Origin: an uncultured beta proteobacterium
GTDB taxonomy: Bacteria > Pseudomonadota > Gammaproteobacteria > Burkholderiales > SG8-41
Direction: 5' to 3'
Assembly (NCBI GenBank): GCA_963778865.1
Contig: CAVZWF010000006.1
Location: 135,959-199,958, forward strand
Length of the DNA stretch: 64,000 nt
Numbering within the stretch: the stretch's first letter is position 1; every line of letters starts with the position of its first letter. This document shows, one piece after another, positions 4,477 through 58,316 of this stretch. Made by a program: the position numbers and the translations under genes. Under the pieces are notes generated by a model. It ran no database searches. It was given only the letters and a program-made list of their open reading frames with translations, and was not told where the DNA came from.

Positions 4477-4549
4477 GTCATTCCCGCGCAGGCGGGAATC
4501 CAGGTGGCTCTGAAAAGAATCCCTGGATCCCCGCCTGCGCGGGGACGAC
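4477..4549. repeat. palindromic REP-like element (28-bp arms, about 24/28 complementary)
   Basis: GTCATTCCCGCGCAGGCGGGAATCCAGG (4477-4504) versus CCTGGATCCCCGCCTGCGCGGGGACGAC (4522-4549). This is the intergenic repeat type that gives spurious IPAQAGIQ / PACAGMT translations. Confidence 0.7.
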
Positions 4550-13349: not shown

Positions 13350-13375
13350 GGTGCATTCCTCGTGAAAACCAATTT

Positions 13376-13499
13376 CAGCCGCAGATAAACGCGGATACAC
13401 GCTGATGAGACAAAAGCCGAAGCACTAAAGGCGGTTACAGCATCGATACGTGATGCGCTTCTCGAAGTATCTGTGTTTATCTGCGTTTATCTGCGGCTC
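13376..13499. repeat. inverted-repeat element, GCAGATAAAC-decamer family, copy 1
   Basis: Left arm AGCCGCAGATAAACGCGGATACACGCTGAT, right arm GTATCTGTGTTTATCTGCGTTTATCTGCGGCTC, with a central spacer of about 60 nt. Same family at 18411/19751 (split), 24444, 43210, 56683 and 58217. Confidence 0.75.
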
Positions 13500-13525
13500 A
13501 AATCGGCTTTTTCAGATTGATTCGG

Positions 13526-17846: not shown

Positions 17847-18395
17847 ATGAACAAACCAGTCAAATCCGTTCGCCGCATCGTCTGCCTCGATGAAAACGAA
17901 AAGTCCCGCGCGATTTCCGACGCGCCGGTACGCGATGTGCACACCGACCCGGCGCGGCCGGGCTACGCTTCGACGCGCATCTGGGTAACCGACCGCACGC
18001 CGGCGCGCATCGAAGGCATCACCGACACGCTGCACCTGCCGCACACGCTCGAACCGCCGCCCGGCGGCTCGGTGTGCCGCATCGTCACGTTTCCGCCCGA
18101 CGCCGCGTTCAAGGGCAACGTCGGCGCGCGCGAAGTGCAGGCGTTTTTCGCCGCGATGGGTTCACCGCATGCGTCGACCTATTCCGCCGCTGCGCCGCAT
18201 CCGTACATGCAGAAGACGCGCACACTCGATCTGTGCCTCGTGCTCGCAGGCGAGATCACGCTCGTGCTCGACACGGAGGAAGTGCACTTGCAAGCAGGCG
18301 ACACCGTCGTGCAGCGCGGCACCAATCACGCGTGGAGCAACCGCTCCGATAAACCGTGCACGATCGCGTTATCGATGCACGACGGAAAATATTAA
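17847..18395 (+). CDS. cupin domain protein (paralog of 17192-17752)
   Basis: Intact 182-aa ORF. GDTVVQRGTNHAWSNRSD matches the GDVVVQLGNWHGWRNP strand of its neighbour. Confidence 0.7.
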   Translation: MNKPVKSVRRIVCLDENEKSRAISDAPVRDVHTDPARPGYASTRIWVTDRTPARIEGITDTLHLPHTLEPPPGGSVCRIVTFPPDAAFKGNVGAREVQAFFAAMGSPHASTYSAAAPHPYMQKTRTLDLCLVLAGEITLVLDTEEVHLQAGDTVVQRGTNHAWSNRSDKPCTIALSMHDGKY

Positions 18396-18410
18396 GATCA
18401 AACCCGTTTT

Positions 18411-18450
18411 GGCCGCCGATGAACGCAGATAAACGCCGATGGGATTCAAA
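18411..18450. repeat. left arm plus inner flank of a split GCAGATAAAC-family element
   Basis: GGCCGCCGATGAACGCAGATAAACGCCGATGGGATTCAAA. Its reverse-complement partner lies 1.3 kb away at 19751-19781. The inner GATTCAAA matches the spacers of copies 43210 and 58217. Confidence 0.65.
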
Positions 18451-18593
18451 CAAAAGAGCGATCGGCAATTGAAACGCAACCTGCGATTCATCACTATTTG
18501 CCGTTATTGAGCAATGACAACAGCAAGCGCAGAATAGCGCCATGAAAACTGGTGTTTGTGTCAAACTAAACTTTCAATCAACATTCGTTGCAA

Positions 18594-19025
18594 ATGAAAC
18601 ATGTCGTCGATACGAATATCTTCAATAAATTAGTTGACGGCAGTCTTCGCCCTGAGGACTTGCCCCATGGGGCGGAGTTTGTTGCTTCGCACGTTCAAGT
18701 CGATGAATTGAACAACACATCAGACATTGAGCGTAGGGCACGGCTATTCTTGAAGTTTGCTGAGTTGGCTCCACAGCTCGTTCCTACGGAATCGGCCGTT
18801 TGGGATACGTCTCGATGGGACCATGCAAAATTGGGAAATGGAGTTACCTATCAAATCCTAAAGAACGAGCTTGACGCCCTAAATGGCGCTAAATCAAACA
18901 ATGTACGCGACGCACTGATTGCCGAGATTGCGTTAATTAACAAATATGTTCTTCTGACCTCTGACTTCCATTTGGCCGAAGTAGCAAAGAAACATGGTGC
19001 TAACGTCGTCTACTTGGCAACCTAA
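18594..19025 (+). CDS. PIN-like domain protein (VapC-like nuclease fold), no adjacent antitoxin recognised
   Basis: 143 aa from ATG 18594, low GC. Four acidic residues at PIN-typical spacing: D6 (VVDTNIF), E38 (QVDELN), D106 (VRDALIAEIAL) and D124 (LLTSDFH). Confidence 0.65.
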   Translation: MKHVVDTNIFNKLVDGSLRPEDLPHGAEFVASHVQVDELNNTSDIERRARLFLKFAELAPQLVPTESAVWDTSRWDHAKLGNGVTYQILKNELDALNGAKSNNVRDALIAEIALINKYVLLTSDFHLAEVAKKHGANVVYLAT

Positions 19026-19144
19026 CCCGCCGCTCAACAATAGACGCGCAAAAGACAGAGCGCTTGTTAGCTGATACGTTGACGGAGTTCCCTTTAGTGC
19101 GTACTCTGCCGTCGTATTCGCGAACGTTCTTGCTGGAGCCACGC

Positions 19145-19591
19145 ATGAAGATGCCCGTACTCACCCTTGTTCTTTGCTTGTGTGCCACTGCTCAGGCCGC
19201 ATGGCAAACGATGGACACAGTTGCCACGAGAACCGTTGTTGCCACCTCGGCGGACGGTAAGATCTCGGTTGGTGTTTACTGCGCAAAGGGACACAAGAAC
19301 TCGATGCGTGGATTTGTGTTCCTCAAGAACCCGCCATTGGAAACTATTGATTTCAGAATTGGAACTGGCTCCTCTGACATTGATCTTTTCATAACTGGAT
19401 ATGGTTTTTTTGGTGGCAACGTTTCGCTGATAGATATTGAGAACTTTGACCAATTCAAGAGGCTCTTGCTCTTGGTGTCGCCAATGCGAGTAATTACTCA
19501 GCCGGCGATAAAGTCCGGGCCGAACGCGCCGTTTGCATCAATAGGTATTTCTGGGGCCGCAACGGCACTTGATTCGGCCTGCAACCGTTAA
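19145..19591 (+). CDS. hypothetical secreted protein
   Basis: Start at MKMPVLTLVLCLCATAQA (signal peptide with an AQA-A cleavage-like site), 148 aa, low GC. No family recognised. Confidence 0.55.
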   Translation: MKMPVLTLVLCLCATAQAAWQTMDTVATRTVVATSADGKISVGVYCAKGHKNSMRGFVFLKNPPLETIDFRIGTGSSDIDLFITGYGFFGGNVSLIDIENFDQFKRLLLLVSPMRVITQPAIKSGPNAPFASIGISGAATALDSACNR

Positions 19592-19750
19592 CACTTGTGG
19601 CAACACGTCTGATCGGCCGGGAACGCCTGCACTCCAACAACCGGTAATTGGCCGACGCGTTCTGCACGGCAAATCCGGGACGTTAAGTCCCGCGTACCCG
19701 GATCGCGCTGCATTCTTGTGCTACCTGTTGTCATCGTATCGATTTCTTAC

Positions 19751-19781
19751 GTATCCGCGTTCATCGGCGTTCATCGGCGGC
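19751..19781. repeat. right arm of the split GCAGATAAAC-family element
   Basis: GTATCCGCGTTCATCGGCGTTCATCGGCGGC is the reverse complement of GCCGCCGATGAACGCCGATGAACGCGGATAC, which matches the left arm at 18411-18441. Confidence 0.65.
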
Positions 19782-19836
19782 AAATCATGTTTTTAATTTT
19801 GCAGCTCGATCCAGACCAGCCCGATGCGCGAACACG

Positions 19837-19962
19837 CTACTCCGCTTTCGCGCCGATTTCCTTCGCGACCGTTGCCCACTTCGCGAGTTCGGCGCGCAAG
19901 AACGCTCCGAATTTCTGCGGCGTGCTACCGACCGGCTCGAAGCCGAGCGCGGTGATGCGGAT
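19837..19962 (-). pseudogene. 3-prime fragment of a Bug-family gene (last ~40 codons)
   Basis: Encodes ..RITALGFEPVGSTPQKFGAFLRAELAKWATVAKEIGAKAE*. By my hand alignment it is about 90% nt-identical to the 3-prime end of the full Bug gene at 20615-20740 (..RITVLGFEPVGSTPQEFGVFLQAELAKWAKVAKEIGAKAE*). Confidence 0.8.
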
Positions 19963-20027
19963 TGTTGGGCCGCCGATAAATAGCCAGTGGAGTATACTAT
20001 TACGATTGTTAGTGCTGGAGTTCTGCG

Positions 20028-20246
20028 ATGAAGACACAGCTGGTCACCATCGATCCCGAAACCCACAGCGGAACGCCCGTATTCGTTGGCACGCGGGTCC
20101 CGGTCAAGACGCTCTTCGATCACCTTGAAGCTGGAGACTCGTTGGAGGTCTTCTTGGATGACTTTCCGTCCGTCAGTCGCGAACTGGCGGTAGCAGTGCT
20201 TGAAGAGGCGCGCACCGCACTCATACCGGATGCGTATCCTGCTTGA
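20028..20246 (+). CDS. DUF433 domain protein (antitoxin-like partner of DUF5615)
   Basis: 72 aa. IDPETHSGTPVFVGTRVPVKTLFDHLEAGDSLEVFLDDFPSVS is the DUF433 signature. Overlaps the next gene. Confidence 0.8.
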   Translation: MKTQLVTIDPETHSGTPVFVGTRVPVKTLFDHLEAGDSLEVFLDDFPSVSRELAVAVLEEARTALIPDAYPA

Positions 20247-20551
20247 CGAGGATCTCCCGCGTCGTCTCGCGACAATGCTGGTTGGTCATGAGGTATCCAC
20301 CGTTCAGCGCAGCGGGTGGACAGGCATCAAGAATGGAAAACTGCTCGGACTCGCCGCCTCTCGAATTCGATGTGTTCCTGACGATGGATGGGAACCTTGA
20401 GTTCCAGCAGAACCTTGCCGCCCTGCCAATTGCCGTGCTTGTGGTTGAAGCAGTCAGCAATCGGATGGAACACCTCGCACCGCTGGTGCCCGGTATCCTG
20501 AGGGAACTCGGCCATATTCCACCCAAGTCCCTACAGAAGGTTGGCGCCTGA
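20230..20551 (+). pseudogene. DUF5615 (PIN-like) toxin-like protein, one frameshift about 20355-20362 as given
   Basis: MRILLDEDLPRRLATMLVGHEVSTVQRSGWTGIKNGKLLGLAA (track ORF 20200..20400) continues in the frame of 20243..20551 as EFDVFLTMDGNLEFQQNLAALPIAVLVVEA... Confidence 0.7.
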
Positions 20552-20614
20552 CCGGGCGCTGAACGCGACCGCCTAACAGCGGCGCCGCGCTTGCGGATGT
20601 CATGCGCGGGCTTG

Positions 20615-21587
20615 CTACTCCGCTTTCGCGCCGATTTCCTTCGCGACCTTCGCCCACTTCGCGAGTTCCGCCTGCAGGAACACGCCGAATTCCTGCGGCG
20701 TGCTGCCGACCGGCTCGAAGCCGAGCACGGTGATGCGTTCGAGCACGTCCGGCAGCTTCAAGTCCTTGACGAGTCTCCGCATTCAGCTGCGTGACGATCG
20801 CCGCGCGGCGTGCGCGCGGGCACCAGCACGCCGTTCCACGCCGGCGCGTCGAATCCCGGCAGGCCCGACTCCGCGATCGTCGGCACGTCGGGCAGGCTCG
20901 CCGAACGCTTGATCGTCGTCACCGCGAGCGGACGTATGCGCCCGGCCTTGATTTGCGGCACCGCCGACGGCGCCGACCACGAAATTGACCTGCACCTGCT
21001 CGCCGATCAACGCGGTGACGCCCTGGGCGACCGTTTTGTACGGCACGTGGACGATGTTGACACCGGTGCGGCTCTTGAACATTTCGCCGATGAGATGTCC
21101 GGGCGAGCCGTTGCCGCCCGAGCCGTAATTCAACTCGCCGGGCTTCGCGCGCGCGAGCTTCACCAGTTCATCCACCGACGTCACCGGCACCGCCGGATGC
21201 ACCGACAACACGAACGGTATGGTGCCGAGCAAAGTCACCGGCGCGAAATCGCGCACCATGTCGTAACGTGAGCTTGAAGAAATTCGGATTGATGGTGTGC
21301 GTGCCGGTCGCGAGCAACAGCGTGTAGCCGTCCGCCGACGCGCGCGCGACCGTTTCCGCCGAGATCATGCCGCCGCCGCCGCCGCGCTCTTCGACCACGA
21401 CCTGCTGCCCCCATGCGGCGGTCAGTTTCGGCCCGAGGATGCGCGCCATCGCGTCCGGCCCGCCGCCGGTGACGAAGCGGATCGGCTTCGCCGGATATTG
21501 CTGCGCAAGTGTCGACGTTGCGCTCAGCACTGCAATGGTTGCCGCCGCCAACACGTGCCAGTGCGTCGCACTAATTGTCCGCCTCAC
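20615..21587 (-). pseudogene. Bug/TctC-family solute receptor, at least 3 frameshifts as given
   Basis: Pieces 21168..21587 (GTG start, ..STLAQQYPAKPIRFVTGGGPD..), 20783..21259 (..NYGSGGNGSPGHLIGEMFK..VHVPYK), 20758..20961 (..ESGLPGFDAPAWNGVLVPARTP) and a final frame ending GAKAE* at TAG 20615-20617. Confidence 0.8.
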
Positions 21588-21921: not shown

Positions 21922-22041
21922 GTTCTCCTCCGTGAGAAAATTGATAATTGACAATTGAAAATTGACAATGAAGTCCGTGTCTCGCTCGCGGTTTCGTTGT
22001 CGCATTGTCAATTCAACTCTTATCCGCGCTGTATCTCCGGC

Positions 22042-22914
22042 TCAAGGCTTAGCTGACTTAAGTCCGCCAAACTCCTGCTCAATCTTCCGCCACTTCTCGA
22101 CGCCGACGATTTTCGTGTATTCCTCGAACGGCGTGCCGGTGCCGACGAGTTTCAGTTCGTCGCTTTTGAGGTCGGCGAGCGCCAGCTGCATGGTCTTGGT
22201 TACGCGCAGCAGCAGCGTGATGCCGTAGAGCGCGATTCCGTAGCCCATCTGGCCGAGCACCGACGGCTTCAGGATCGGCGTGATGCCGCCTTCGAGCATG
22301 TTCGCGACGTGGCAGGTCTGCACTTCGCGCACGGCGCGCGCGATTTCGTCCTCGTTCAGCATCGATTCGATGAACACGCCGTCGGCACCCGCGCGCACGT
22401 AGCGCTCGGCGCGGCGCAGCGCCTCGTCCATGCCGTGGATCGCGCGCGCATCGGTGCGCGCGACGATGAACGTGTCCGGATTCATGCGGTTCGCGGCCAT
22501 CGCGCGCAGCTTCGCCTCCATCTCCTCCGTCGGCACGACCTGCTTGCCGGCCATGTGGCCGCAGCGCTTGGGCGACACCTGGTCTTCGATGAACATCGCC
22601 TGCACGCCCATGCGCTCGTAGGTGTGCAGCAGATGCACCGCGTTCTTCACGTCGCCGTAGCCGTTGTCGGCATCGACCAGCACCGGCAGATCGCACGCGC
22701 TGATCATGTCGCGAAACGCCGCCGAGAATTCACCCAGCTGGCACAAGCCGATGTCGGGCAGCCCGTAGCGCGCGCCCGCGGTCTGGAATCCGCCGATGAA
22801 AAATCCTTTGAAGCCGGCCTCCTTGATGAGCAGCGCGGACAGCGCGTCGTGCGCGCCGGGCAGGACCAGCGGTTTTTCGGTCTGCGCGAGCTGGCGTATG
22901 GTGGGTGATTTCAC
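22042..22914 (-). CDS. isocitrate lyase / PEP mutase family enzyme (methylisocitrate lyase / oxaloacetate decarboxylase-like)
   Basis: Intact. I chose the GTG start at 22914 (VKSPTIRQLAQTEKPLVLPGAHDALSA). Motifs VDADNGYG and EDQVSPKRCGHMAGK. The start is uncertain because the track ORF extends to 23052. Confidence 0.8.
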   Translation of the reverse strand: MKSPTIRQLAQTEKPLVLPGAHDALSALLIKEAGFKGFFIGGFQTAGARYGLPDIGLCQLGEFSAAFRDMISACDLPVLVDADNGYGDVKNAVHLLHTYERMGVQAMFIEDQVSPKRCGHMAGKQVVPTEEMEAKLRAMAANRMNPDTFIVARTDARAIHGMDEALRRAERYVRAGADGVFIESMLNEDEIARAVREVQTCHVANMLEGGITPILKPSVLGQMGYGIALYGITLLLRVTKTMQLALADLKSDELKLVGTGTPFEEYTKIVGVEKWRKIEQEFGGLKSAKP

Positions 22915-23971: not shown

Positions 23972-24466
23972 ATGGACCATTCCGTCGAAACCACGCTGAT
24001 CGTCAACGGCACGCCGACCACGCGGCGCATCGAGCCGCGCCAGCATCTGATCGATTTCCTGCGCGAGGACCTCGGCCTCACCGGCTCGCACACCGGCTGC
24101 GAGCACGGCGTGTGCGGCGCGTGCACGGTGCGCGTCGACGGCAAAATCGTGCGCGGCTGCCTGATGCTCGCCGTGCAGGCCGCAGGCAAGCGCGTCGACA
24201 CCATCGAAGGCCTGTCCGACTCCGGCGAAATCGCCGAGCTGCAGCGCGCGTTCCACGAGCGCAACGCGCTGCAGTGCGGCTTCTGCACGCCGGGCATGCT
24301 GATGGCGGCGCAGGACCTTATCCTGAAGAACCCGCGCGCCACGCGCGACGAAATCCGCGAGCACATCTCGGGCAATTACTGCCGCTGCACCGGCTATCAG
24401 GCGATCGTCGATGCGATTGAAAACGTGCTTAAGGCAAATGCGGTTGCCGCGGATAAACGCAGATGA
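23972..24466 (+). CDS. molybdenum hydroxylase [2Fe-2S] small subunit (CoxS-like), cluster 1
   Basis: ATG 23972, intact. GCEHGVCGACTV and CGFCTPGM cluster motifs. The last residues ADKRR* and the stop codon lie inside the repeat element 24444-24564. Confidence 0.9.
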   Translation: MDHSVETTLIVNGTPTTRRIEPRQHLIDFLREDLGLTGSHTGCEHGVCGACTVRVDGKIVRGCLMLAVQAAGKRVDTIEGLSDSGEIAELQRAFHERNALQCGFCTPGMLMAAQDLILKNPRATRDEIREHISGNYCRCTGYQAIVDAIENVLKANAVAADKRR

Positions 24467-24564
24467 ACGCAATTGACAATGGACAACGAAATCCTGATGC
24501 GATCGCCTTGAATTCGTTGTCAATCAGTCGATTATCCGCGTGTATCTGCGTCTACGCAGTGCAA
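24444..24564. repeat. inverted-repeat element, GCAGATAAAC family, copy in the S-L intergenic region of cluster 1
   Basis: Left arm TTGCCGCGGATAAACGCAGATGAACGC, right arm ATTATCCGCGTGTATCTGCGTCTACGCAGTGCAA, with an inner palindrome GACAACGAA / TTCGTTGTC. Confidence 0.7.
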
Positions 24565-43209: not shown

Positions 43210-43382
43210 TTGCCGCAGATAAACGCGGATGAGAATCAAAGCCAAGTCATCAAGGCCACGAATTATCACGGAAAGCACAAAGCGGAACAATACAATTGAT
43301 TTCAATAATCAAGAATTATTCGGCAATCCTTTTGATTATTTTTTTGAATTCATCTGCGTTTATCTGCGTTTATCTGCGGCTA
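43210..43382. repeat. inverted-repeat element, GCAGATAAAC family, largest compact copy
   Basis: Left arm TTGCCGCAGATAAACGCGGATGAG, right arm TTCATCTGCGTTTATCTGCGTTTATCTGCGGCTA, with an AT-rich spacer of about 115 nt beginning GAATCAAAGCC. Confidence 0.75.
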
Positions 43383-56682: not shown

Positions 56683-56817
56683 TTAGCCAGCAGAGCTCAC
56701 AGATTGGACACAGAGAGAATCCGGACGAACCGCATGATAGTCCAAGACGGCGAACGTCGGACTAGATGGGCAGCATTGATTTCTATCTGTGTTTCATCTG
56801 CGCGCATCTGCGGCTAC
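56683..56817. repeat. inverted-repeat element, GCAGATAAAC family, with degenerate left arm
   Basis: Right arm GATTTCTATCTGTGTTTCATCTGCGCGCATCTGCGGCTAC. The left arm TTAGCCAGCAGAGCTCACAGATTGGACACAGAGAGAATC aligns to its reverse complement with several mismatches. Confidence 0.6.
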
Positions 56818-57729: not shown

Positions 57730-58238
57730 GCGAAAAGCTGCACGCGGTCACGGTTGAAGTCAACGGCGTGCGCCGCACGGCGCAGGTGCCCGCGCGCCTG
57801 TCGCTCGTCGATTGGCTGCGCGACGAACTGCGGCTCACCGGCACGCACGTCGGCTGCGAGCACGGCATCTGCGGCGCGTGCTCGGTGCTGCTCGACGGCG
57901 AGCCGGTGCGTTCCTGCCTGATGTTCGCCGTGCAGGCCGACGGCCACCGCGTGACCACCGTGGAAGGCCTCGCCAATGCCGACGGCTCGCCGAGCGTATT
58001 GCAGGACAGCTTCTGCCACACGCACGCGCTGCAGTGCGGCTACTGCACGCCGGGCATGCTGATCGCCGCGCAGGCACTGCTGACCGCCGTGCCGCAACCG
58101 ACCGACGCCGAGATACGCGAAGCGATCGGCGGCAATCTGTGCCGCTGCACCGGCTACCAGCAGATCGTCGATGCGGTCAAACACGCCGCCGCGCGGCTCG
58201 CAAACGACAATTCATCAGCCGCAGATAAACGCAGATGA
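57726..58238 (+). CDS. molybdenum hydroxylase [2Fe-2S] small subunit (CoxS-like), cluster 2
   Basis: GTG 57726 (VSEKLHAVTVEVNG..). GCEHGICGACSV and CGYCTPGM motifs. The C-terminal AADKRR* and stop codon lie inside repeat 58217-58316. Confidence 0.9.
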   Translation: MSEKLHAVTVEVNGVRRTAQVPARLSLVDWLRDELRLTGTHVGCEHGICGACSVLLDGEPVRSCLMFAVQADGHRVTTVEGLANADGSPSVLQDSFCHTHALQCGYCTPGMLIAAQALLTAVPQPTDAEIREAIGGNLCRCTGYQQIVDAVKHAAARLANDNSSAADKRR

Positions 58239-58316
58239 ACGCAGATAGATTCAAAACGGCCGAAGCATCATCGAATTGGTTTTTCATCCGCGTTTATCTG
58301 CGTGTATCTGCGGCAA
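58217..58316. repeat. inverted-repeat element, GCAGATAAAC family, copy in the S-L intergenic region of cluster 2
   Basis: Left arm CAGCCGCAGATAAACGCAGATGAACGCAGATAGATTC (three ~10-nt units), right arm TTTTCATCCGCGTTTATCTGCGTGTATCTGCGGCAA. Confidence 0.75.

Follow-up and report, generated by a model that had tools for sequence, protein, structure and literature searches.

Inverted doublets that form hairpins between genes, together with a nuclease gene flanked by inverted repeats, are reportedly characteristic of REP/REPIN-RAYT systems, which are said to go back to Nunvar in 2010 and to Bertels and Rainey in 2011. For integrons, cassettes that stand alone (SALINs) and insertions by the integrase at genomic GWT sites are on record (Loot et al., bioRxiv 10.1101/2022.09.11.507474). 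We describe here a locus that resembles both, the palindromic element at 18409-19784 of a 64,000-nt stretch of an uncultured beta proteobacterium (contig CAVZWF010000006.1, positions 135,959 to 199,958; hereafter the window), whose arms enclose a low-GC interior with a PIN-type nuclease gene and the gene of a secreted protein. The explanation that we favor, at roughly even odds (about 50%), is a nested insertion, in which a SALIN-type cassette would have entered the loop of a resident REPIN-like hairpin by the integrase route, within ~1.15-1.3 kb of foreign DNA. An earlier inspection of the letters and open reading frames (ORFs), the sequence-only reading, had offered two options, a cassette inserted in the loop of a pre-existing element or a cargo-carrying larger relative of short copies; it had noticed neither the integron attC site of the PIN gene nor the extension of the low-GC island to ~20560 with a second insertion.

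The likeness to SALINs and to small cassette arrays (CALINs), both treated in bioRxiv 10.1101/2022.09.11.507474, lies in a single promoterless ORF with a canonical attC and its extrahelical base, in the lack of an integrase or attI near the cassette, and in G|TT junctions compatible with GWT; the cassette gene, a small nuclease of toxin-like type, is also a kind of cargo common in chromosomal integrons. It differs from SALINs and CALINs in its landing site, the loop of a palindromic repeat, in a 5' end that is 5 nt short, and in the attC-less gene behind it. As a natural instance of an integron cassette outside any integron, here in an uncultured soil betaproteobacterium, the locus is a clean one. 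As in REP/REPIN-RAYT systems, the long hairpins are short inverted doublets, intergenic and present in hundreds of copies, lack target-site duplications, are kept at orthologous sites, and in some members a nuclease gene is flanked by the inverted repeats. Unlike those systems, the arms are direct 10-mer arrays rather than palindromic REPs with GTAG, and the associated gene, with thousands of close metagenome homologues, encodes a PD-(D/E)XK protein (PF13366/TIGR04256) rather than a Y1 (IS200/IS605-like) transposase. Miniature inverted-repeat transposable elements (MITEs) share with the family its shortness, terminal inverted repeats, lack of a transposase and many copies; the family departs from them in having no target-site duplication, a variable number of arm units, unrelated spacers, and copies that are stable at orthologous sites. 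The PIN protein has the fold and the invariant acidic quartet of VapC toxins, and unlike in VapBC type II toxin-antitoxin modules no antitoxin gene lies 5' of it, either in the window or in the homologous cassette at L002 (L numbers are our labels for loci in other sequences).

The PIN gene cassette and the gene behind it

The PIN gene (18594-19025, plus strand) forms an integron-type gene cassette at 18588-19078 (plus strand), which comprises a 6-nt leader, the ORF, and the attC as far as the G in G|TT. This attC, 65 nt long (19020-19084, plus strand), runs from an R'' box ACCTAAC laid over the stop codon through CCGCC, the L'' box GCT[C]AACA, a central stem-loop, the L' box TGTTAGC and TGATAC to the R' box GTTGACG. 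The L boxes pair at 7/7 positions with the bracketed C bulged out, and a custom scan of 18300-20700 found no other canonical attC layout. The R' box does not fit RRRY, its last 6 nt being neighboring DNA. In folding energy the candidate attC regions did no better than shuffled sequences, so that folding alone is no evidence here, and an Rfam scan of the whole window matched no family, Rfam having no attC family.

Homologues of the PIN gene behave as cassettes. At L002, the homologue P0002 (66% identical) sits in an array of small same-strand ORFs with near-identical attCs between them, in which every cassette opens with six bases complementary to its own R''; the PIN ORF is alone in its cassette, without an antitoxin. 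A common PIN cassette is found at L002, L003 and L004, which diverge from one another exactly after ...CTACG|TT. The L001 homologue (88% identical) lies in another context, after an MFS transporter gene; the 5' end of its cassette, G|TTAGGT, is the exact reverse complement of the R'' ACCTAAC, and homology between the window and L001 stops exactly at ...GATACG|TT. An apparent similarity of the DNA 5' of the PIN gene between these two proved not significant. Eight attCs (that of the window and seven of L001 and L002) have a common layout, R''-5 nt-L''[bulged C]...L'-5/6 nt-R', in which the L-box helix is preserved by compensatory changes (GCTAACA, GGTGACC, AGTCAC) and the position of the bulged C is constant. 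The attC layout and the cassette behavior at L001-L004 together identify the PIN gene as an integron-type cassette. Other members of the PIN protein family sit on chromosomes as ordinary genes that lack an attC, and in none of 11 other contexts of PIN-family genes were the hairpin arms present.

The predicted product is a PIN-fold nuclease by its modeled fold and four acidic residues. Its Pfam PIN match fell under the gathering threshold (E = 0.003) and a sequence search against the PDB gave noise alone; it was the fold search that supplied a match, with an AlphaFold model (mean confidence score, pLDDT, of 93.6) whose best PDB counterparts are VapC toxins at a template modeling (TM) score of ~0.6 (Shigella VapC, 3tnd_A). 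In the family alignment D6, E38, D106 and D124 are invariant. JGI labels its relatives 'FCF1-like', and tblastn against plasmids returned two distant and uninformative Streptomyces matches. We found no antitoxin-size gene 5' of the PIN gene, there being no plus-strand ORF of at least 40 aa in 18396-18593.

The second gene (19145-19591, plus strand) encodes a 148-aa protein with a signal peptide, in which ATRT and TGYGF motifs and two cysteines are conserved. Word-indexed searching found no homologue; exhaustive HMMER searching found three, at 33-41% identity, among 1.8 billion representatives. A metagenome scan found no close relative of it, exact look-up of this protein and of the DUF433 protein described below gave no match, and neither did an NCBIfam search with the four small proteins of the low-GC island. 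The model of the 148-aa protein, of moderate quality (pLDDT 70), has a weak fold likeness to Bartonella IalB, invasion-associated protein B (3dtd, TM 0.52). The three homologues lie in accessory contexts: that of L094 possibly in a cassette array, with similar GGCCTA-containing repeats on both sides, and those of L093 and L095 outside arrays. A C-terminal fragment beside one of them is, as we take it by eye, a P4-type integrase. Direct reading, without a call from the custom scan, offers a non-canonical candidate for a second attC at 19586-19743 (plus strand), which we do not regard as established: an R''-like CGTTAAC overlies the stop codon and is complementary at 6/7 positions to the first bases of the unit (G+TTGACG), and an L''-like TGGCAACA (19598-19605) pairs at 7/8 positions with TGTTGTCA (19726-19733), with no GTT at canonical spacing and a GAT at 19741, 2 nt too far. 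The sequence-only reading had spoken of a two-gene cassette; the two genes are there, but the canonical attC belongs to the PIN gene alone, and they are probably two units of separate origin.

The resident hairpin and its empty site

A repeat search returned the arm pair 18409-18440 (plus strand) and 19753-19784 (minus strand), 32 nt each, 88% complementary and 1312 nt apart, in line with the ~1300 nt first estimated by eye. The left arm is GCCGC followed by three 10-mer units (CGCCGATGAA CGCAGATAAA CGCCGAT), the right arm reads ATCCGCG TTCATCGGCG TTCATCGGCGGC, and the 29-nt arm core has three matches in the window against 0 expected by chance, with no mismatch at 18412 and three mismatches at 19753 on the minus strand. 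The element lies between convergent cupin and TctC genes. Its outer A/T-rich flank (GATCAAACCCGTTTTG, 18396-18411, plus strand) begins directly 3' of the cupin stop codon (18393-18395) and pairs imperfectly with 19782-19800. The element belongs to the decamer-array family described below: it has A/T-run flanks, its left side consists of GCCGC and at least two CGCNGATRAA units, and its right side is the reverse complement of these.

Relatives of the locus were found by scanning species-representative genomes with the upstream cupin protein, which placed the window in an uncultured betaproteobacterial lineage (Burkholderiales level); two relatives, L041 and L017, are syntenic across the site. 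At L041 (87% nucleotide identity) GCCGCCGATGAACG|CGTTCATCGGCGGC stands between the cupin stop codon and the native TctC downstream region; it is a perfect 28-nt palindrome, equal to the outermost unit of each window arm. At the orthologous site of L017 there is GCCGCCGATGAATGCC alone, which is the left half arm. The outermost left unit is thus kept in both relatives and the outermost right unit in L041, and window positions 18441-19752 are missing from both. Since the palindrome of L041 and the half arm of L017 stand there without the interior, the arms are halves of one element already at the site, and the interior is an addition. The search for an empty site, which had been recommended together with the idea of a cassette in the loop of a pre-existing element, was thereby successful, and the idea itself gains from the L041 palindrome, the L017 half arm and an inner inverted repeat.

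This inner repeat has its left copy at 18514-18543 (plus strand), within the left non-coding interior, and its right copy (ATCGCGCTGCATTCTTGTGCTACCTGTTGTCAT) at 19702-19734 (plus strand); its Smith-Waterman score of 28 (shuffle mean 15.3, sd 2.3) was reached in 3 of 1000 shuffles. It brackets both genes, from which it follows that the hairpin extends inward and that the added DNA lies at its apex, within ~18545-19701. A match that had been proposed between the inner left flank and the spacer starts of other copies amounts to a few bases (GAT-GA-TCAAA) and is not significant.

The composition of the interior is foreign. GC is 0.418 in the left non-coding part (18441-18587, plus strand, with a local hairpin at 18463-18503 and ending in the junction CATTCG|TT), 0.463 in the PIN gene, 0.497 in the second gene and 0.565 in the right non-coding part, as against 0.641 for the cupin gene and 0.632 for the whole window; GC at third codon positions (GC3) is 0.49 and 0.54 for the two genes and 0.80 for cupin. 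The low GC and the two intact genes had been recognized from the letters (0.42-0.50 against 0.63 by our figures); both ORFs lie on the same strand. When the non-coding interior was compared by BLAST with 1.5 Mb of related loci, nothing but the attC of L001 matched. An independent 1461-nt Logan contig (ERR12035933), which by gene offset would extend over ~18320-19780 of the window, has the identical PIN protein and a 148-aa gene at equal spacing; its 148-aa product is not identical to that of the window. Apparent empty alleles in public reads, in the form of arm-to-arm 'skips', turned out to be other family copies placed here, the locus being present there in fragments only.

The course of events that we propose would begin with the resident palindromic repeat between cupin and TctC. 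Its apex would then have gained ~1.15-1.3 kb of foreign low-GC DNA in at least two parts, namely a promoterless integron cassette with a stand-alone PIN nuclease gene and an intact 65-nt attC, and the gene of a rare secreted protein, which may have come with the cassette or have been there earlier. For the cassette itself the most probable way in is the SALIN/attG route, on which an integron integrase would have joined the folded attC to a genomic GWT site of non-canonical type and left the junctions CATTCG|TT and GATACG|TT. The arms would have had no catalytic part in this; their AT-rich, non-essential loop may simply have tolerated the landing, and its structure possibly left it exposed.

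The hairpin family and its GxxExxY genes

Arms of this very abundant family are tandem arrays of the 10-mer CGCNGATRAA headed by GCCGC, and the two-unit pattern CGCMGATRAACGCMGAT has 18 matches in the window (0.26 expected). Besides the element at 18409-19784 there are four complete short copies (13365-13510, 24446-24556, 43212-43380 and 58218-58314), a solo right arm (~56785-56814) and a degenerate relative at 21935-22045, with a left side of ATTGACAAT units and a right end ATCCGCGCTGTATCTCCGGC; a ATTGACAA unit also occurs within the copy at 24446. The six copies first counted were thus roughly right as five complete ones, a solo arm and a degenerate relative, and the other copies are short as stated, with spacers of 39-121 nt where 30-115 nt had been given. 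An exact-pattern scan of JGI metagenomes matched at least 120 contigs, most of them of soil or peat origin. The spacing of 85 convergent arm pairs (window and matches listed) ranged from -2 to 149 nt with five exceptions, at 397, 481, 508, 1312 (the window) and 3813 nt; the last, L191, was rejected as a cargo carrier, since its arms are unrelated and the DNA between them is normal in GC, with ordinary genes. Of 258 arms at the metagenome loci (matches listed), ~88 lacked a partner.

In 81 short elements (window and L096-L215) we found no target-site duplication: direct 3-nt matches numbered 5 and inverted ones 15. Instead the flanks prolong the palindrome, with a consensus AAAnnnnnTTtA|GCCGC...GCGGC|TAannnnnTTT and A and T runs at the ends, a bidirectional-terminator-like arrangement. 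The lack of target-site duplications means that these copies are not MITEs, and the 'MITE-like' of the sequence-only reading is not supported; the hairpins probably act as intergenic transcript-end or stabilizer structures. At one orthologous pair, window 24446-24556 and L017 5916-6007 (both between CoxS-like and CoxL-like genes), the arms are kept and the spacers wholly unrelated, which indicates that loops turn over much faster than arms.

Other observations concern the build of the arms. At L023 (7610-7882) two elements are interleaved (A-type +, C-type +, A-type -, C-type -), and at L005 (2332-2455) the left arm is of CGCCGAT type, its right counterpart and the spacer consisting of CACAGAG units; from these composites, arms look modular. 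A private CGCCGAT variant in the arms at 18409-19784 was considered as arm-arm co-variation and dropped, the A/C/G position varying independently between arms in other copies. At L041 (1775-1881), compared with window 22780-22800, a hairpin starts exactly where homology to the window coding sequence (…GGAATCCGCCGATGAAAAA…) stops; a chance GCCGCCGATGAA in the gene looks as though it had served as the seed of an arm, and this could also be an assembly artefact of this metagenome-assembled genome. Two other strong palindromes of different sequence, with 28-nt arms, lie in the window at 2537-2601 (96% complementarity) and 4477-4549 (89%), the latter of GTCATTCCCGCGCAGGCGGGAATCC type. The exact arm sequences had no match in 8 million papers searched.

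Interiors of 397-508 nt hold one GxxExxY gene each (L109 2069-2630; L123 600-1040; L133 175-699), on the same strand as the PIN gene in the window; all three match Pfam PDDEXK_3 (PF13366, E 1e-37 to 1e-41) and TIGR04256. At L123 and close homologues, including that of L216 (9962-10439), arm or arm-like units supply the start codon and the codons of the first residues (MNADE...), and in L109 and L133 the gene begins ~40-90 nt into the loop. These three loci had been chosen through their arms, and the link was therefore tested from the protein side, by a search with the core domain only. It returned 6622 homologues, the named ones from Acidobacteriota/Bryobacteraceae, and 44 of the best 60 of these 6622 begin with MN(A/T/P)DE..., the translation of arm ATGAACGCNGATGAA. 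L216, a 278-kb contig chosen through the protein, has left arm, gene and right arm in a row between fumarase and peptidase genes. The GxxExxY genes thus share loop position and strand with the PIN gene, in other members of the family; in the window itself a hidden Markov model search of six frames found no GxxExxY gene or remnant, and a decayed one hidden in the interior was rejected on the same result.

A superfamily survey lists the function of PDDEXK_3 as 'unknown' (PMC3424549). GxxExxY is scarcely mentioned in the literature searched, in which we found no description of a link to hairpin repeats, and the link appears to be undescribed so far. We tentatively consider, as a rather long shot, that decamer hairpins and GxxExxY proteins form a REPIN/RAYT-like partnership with a different enzyme class, common to Acidobacteriota and a clade of soil Betaproteobacteria, in which the nuclease gene would sit in the loop with its start codon in the arm, gene-less copies would be derivatives or targets, and the loop would be a general slot for gene exchange.

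Competing explanations and a repeatedly used site

Several points weigh against the nested insertion of a SALIN-type cassette. The attC call comes from a custom scan and comparative evidence rather than from the IntegronFinder covariance model. The left junction of the window, CATTCG|TTGCAAATG, is 5 nt (AGGTT) short of the canonical start seen as CG|TTAGGTTGCAAATG in L001, so that one must suppose either that bases were deleted later or that the crossover was non-canonical. In six frames of the 64 kb we found no box II motif of a tyrosine recombinase, and the window lacks the intI and attI of a complete integron, the neighbors being the cupin and TctC genes. The custom scan found no canonical attC after the second gene (19079-19745), so that a fragment of a two-cassette array is not demonstrable and the arrival of that gene is left unexplained. 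It is by composition alone that a loss in L041 and L017 is made unlikely and the 1.3-kb difference is read as a gain here. Finally, the hypervariable loops may point to an arm-dependent exchange mechanism.

Such an exchange is at the core of the main competing explanation, which we regard as possible but doubtful: arms and interior would be a mobile or exchangeable unit in which GxxExxY cargo was swapped for the PIN gene and its passenger, the resident short copy being replaced by arm recombination or nuclease-driven homing. The gene-bearing relatives at L109, L123, L133 and L216, with GxxExxY oriented like PIN, the arm-encoded starts of 44 of the best 60 homologues, and unrelated orthologous spacers between kept arms all speak for it, and the outermost-unit-only arms of L041 would also fit an incoming element that brought its own inner units. 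To the larger cargo-carrying relative proposed from the letters this concedes that gene-bearing members exist, but their cargo is GxxExxY, and the recommended search for the PIN and secreted-protein pair between arms elsewhere found no second copy in any collection searched. Nor do arms accompany PIN-family genes in their 11 other contexts or a GxxExxY remnant lie in the window; the PIN gene has a mobility signature of its own, the unrelated attC, and we know of no mechanism for arm-mediated movement. That both genes moved together as cassettes of a decayed small array (CALIN), the second attC having eroded and the arms being incidental, would agree with the R''-like CGTTAAC over the second stop codon, its L''-like box 5 nt 3' with 7/8 pairing to 19726-19733, and the GGCCTA-containing repeats about the L094 homologue. 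The candidate site, which would be 158 nt long, fails canonical spacing, however, and the right copy of the inner inverted repeat accounts better for its 3' half; with the L093 and L095 homologues outside arrays, we consider this course unlikely.

A further reading, an ancestral interior that the relatives have lost by deletion, with no insertion in the window, draws on the tendency of palindromes to favor deletions: the perfect palindrome of L041 could stem from an inter-arm deletion at a GC microhomology, and L017 has clearly lost its right arm. It is nevertheless very unlikely in view of the interior GC of 0.42-0.50 and GC3 of 0.49-0.54 (0.64 and 0.80 in the neighbors), the attC cassette inside, whose closest relatives lie in unrelated contexts, and the lack of the interior in two independent relatives. 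Hardly credible, to our mind, is a chance match or a pair of independent half-elements with unrelated DNA between them. Solo arms do occur, at window 56785-56814 and among the unpaired metagenome arms (~88/258, matches listed), but the sequence-only reading, which had named this outcome as one that would overturn it, is not overturned: the outermost units are joined at the orthologous site of L041 as one perfect palindrome, 0 arm matches would be expected by chance, and a nested inverted repeat is present.

Beyond the right arm, the low-GC island continues to ~20560. A 123-nt copy of a TctC/Bug 3' end (19837-19959, minus strand, ~91% identical), contiguous with native intergenic DNA, is followed by a stretch at 19960-20612 (plus strand) with a DUF433 gene (20028-20246) and a DUF5615 PIN-like gene in two frames (20200-20400 and 20243-20551). 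The whole block 19837-20612 is missing from L041 and L017, and the 123-nt duplicate marks it as a second, separate insertion; the diverged duplication suggests a Campbell-type integration via a TctC-like segment. Its ends are cassette-like, with G|TTGGGC (19964) and, after the stop codon, GCCTAAC (20571), and a canonical attC is absent. The TctC/Bug gene at 20615-21587 (minus strand) is itself broken, with a frame switch at ~21266 by tblastn with the L041 and L017 orthologues and ORF pieces at 20615-20782, 20783-21259 and 21168-21587, either as a pseudogene or through assembly indels.

With two insertions at one site, the cupin-TctC intergenic space is a repeated target for gene gain. The empty site in relatives makes the event datable, and it bears on how broadly cassettes spread via non-classical sites. 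The GxxExxY link turns a hypothetical-protein question into a testable one, namely whether this small nuclease binds, cuts or spreads the hairpins. If the partnership were true, the slot in the window, filled by a non-cognate integron-borne PIN gene and a passenger, would represent cross-talk between two gene-capture systems; and should repeat loops prove to be favored as landing pads, soil bacteria would have in them a class of gene-gain hot spots that has been overlooked.

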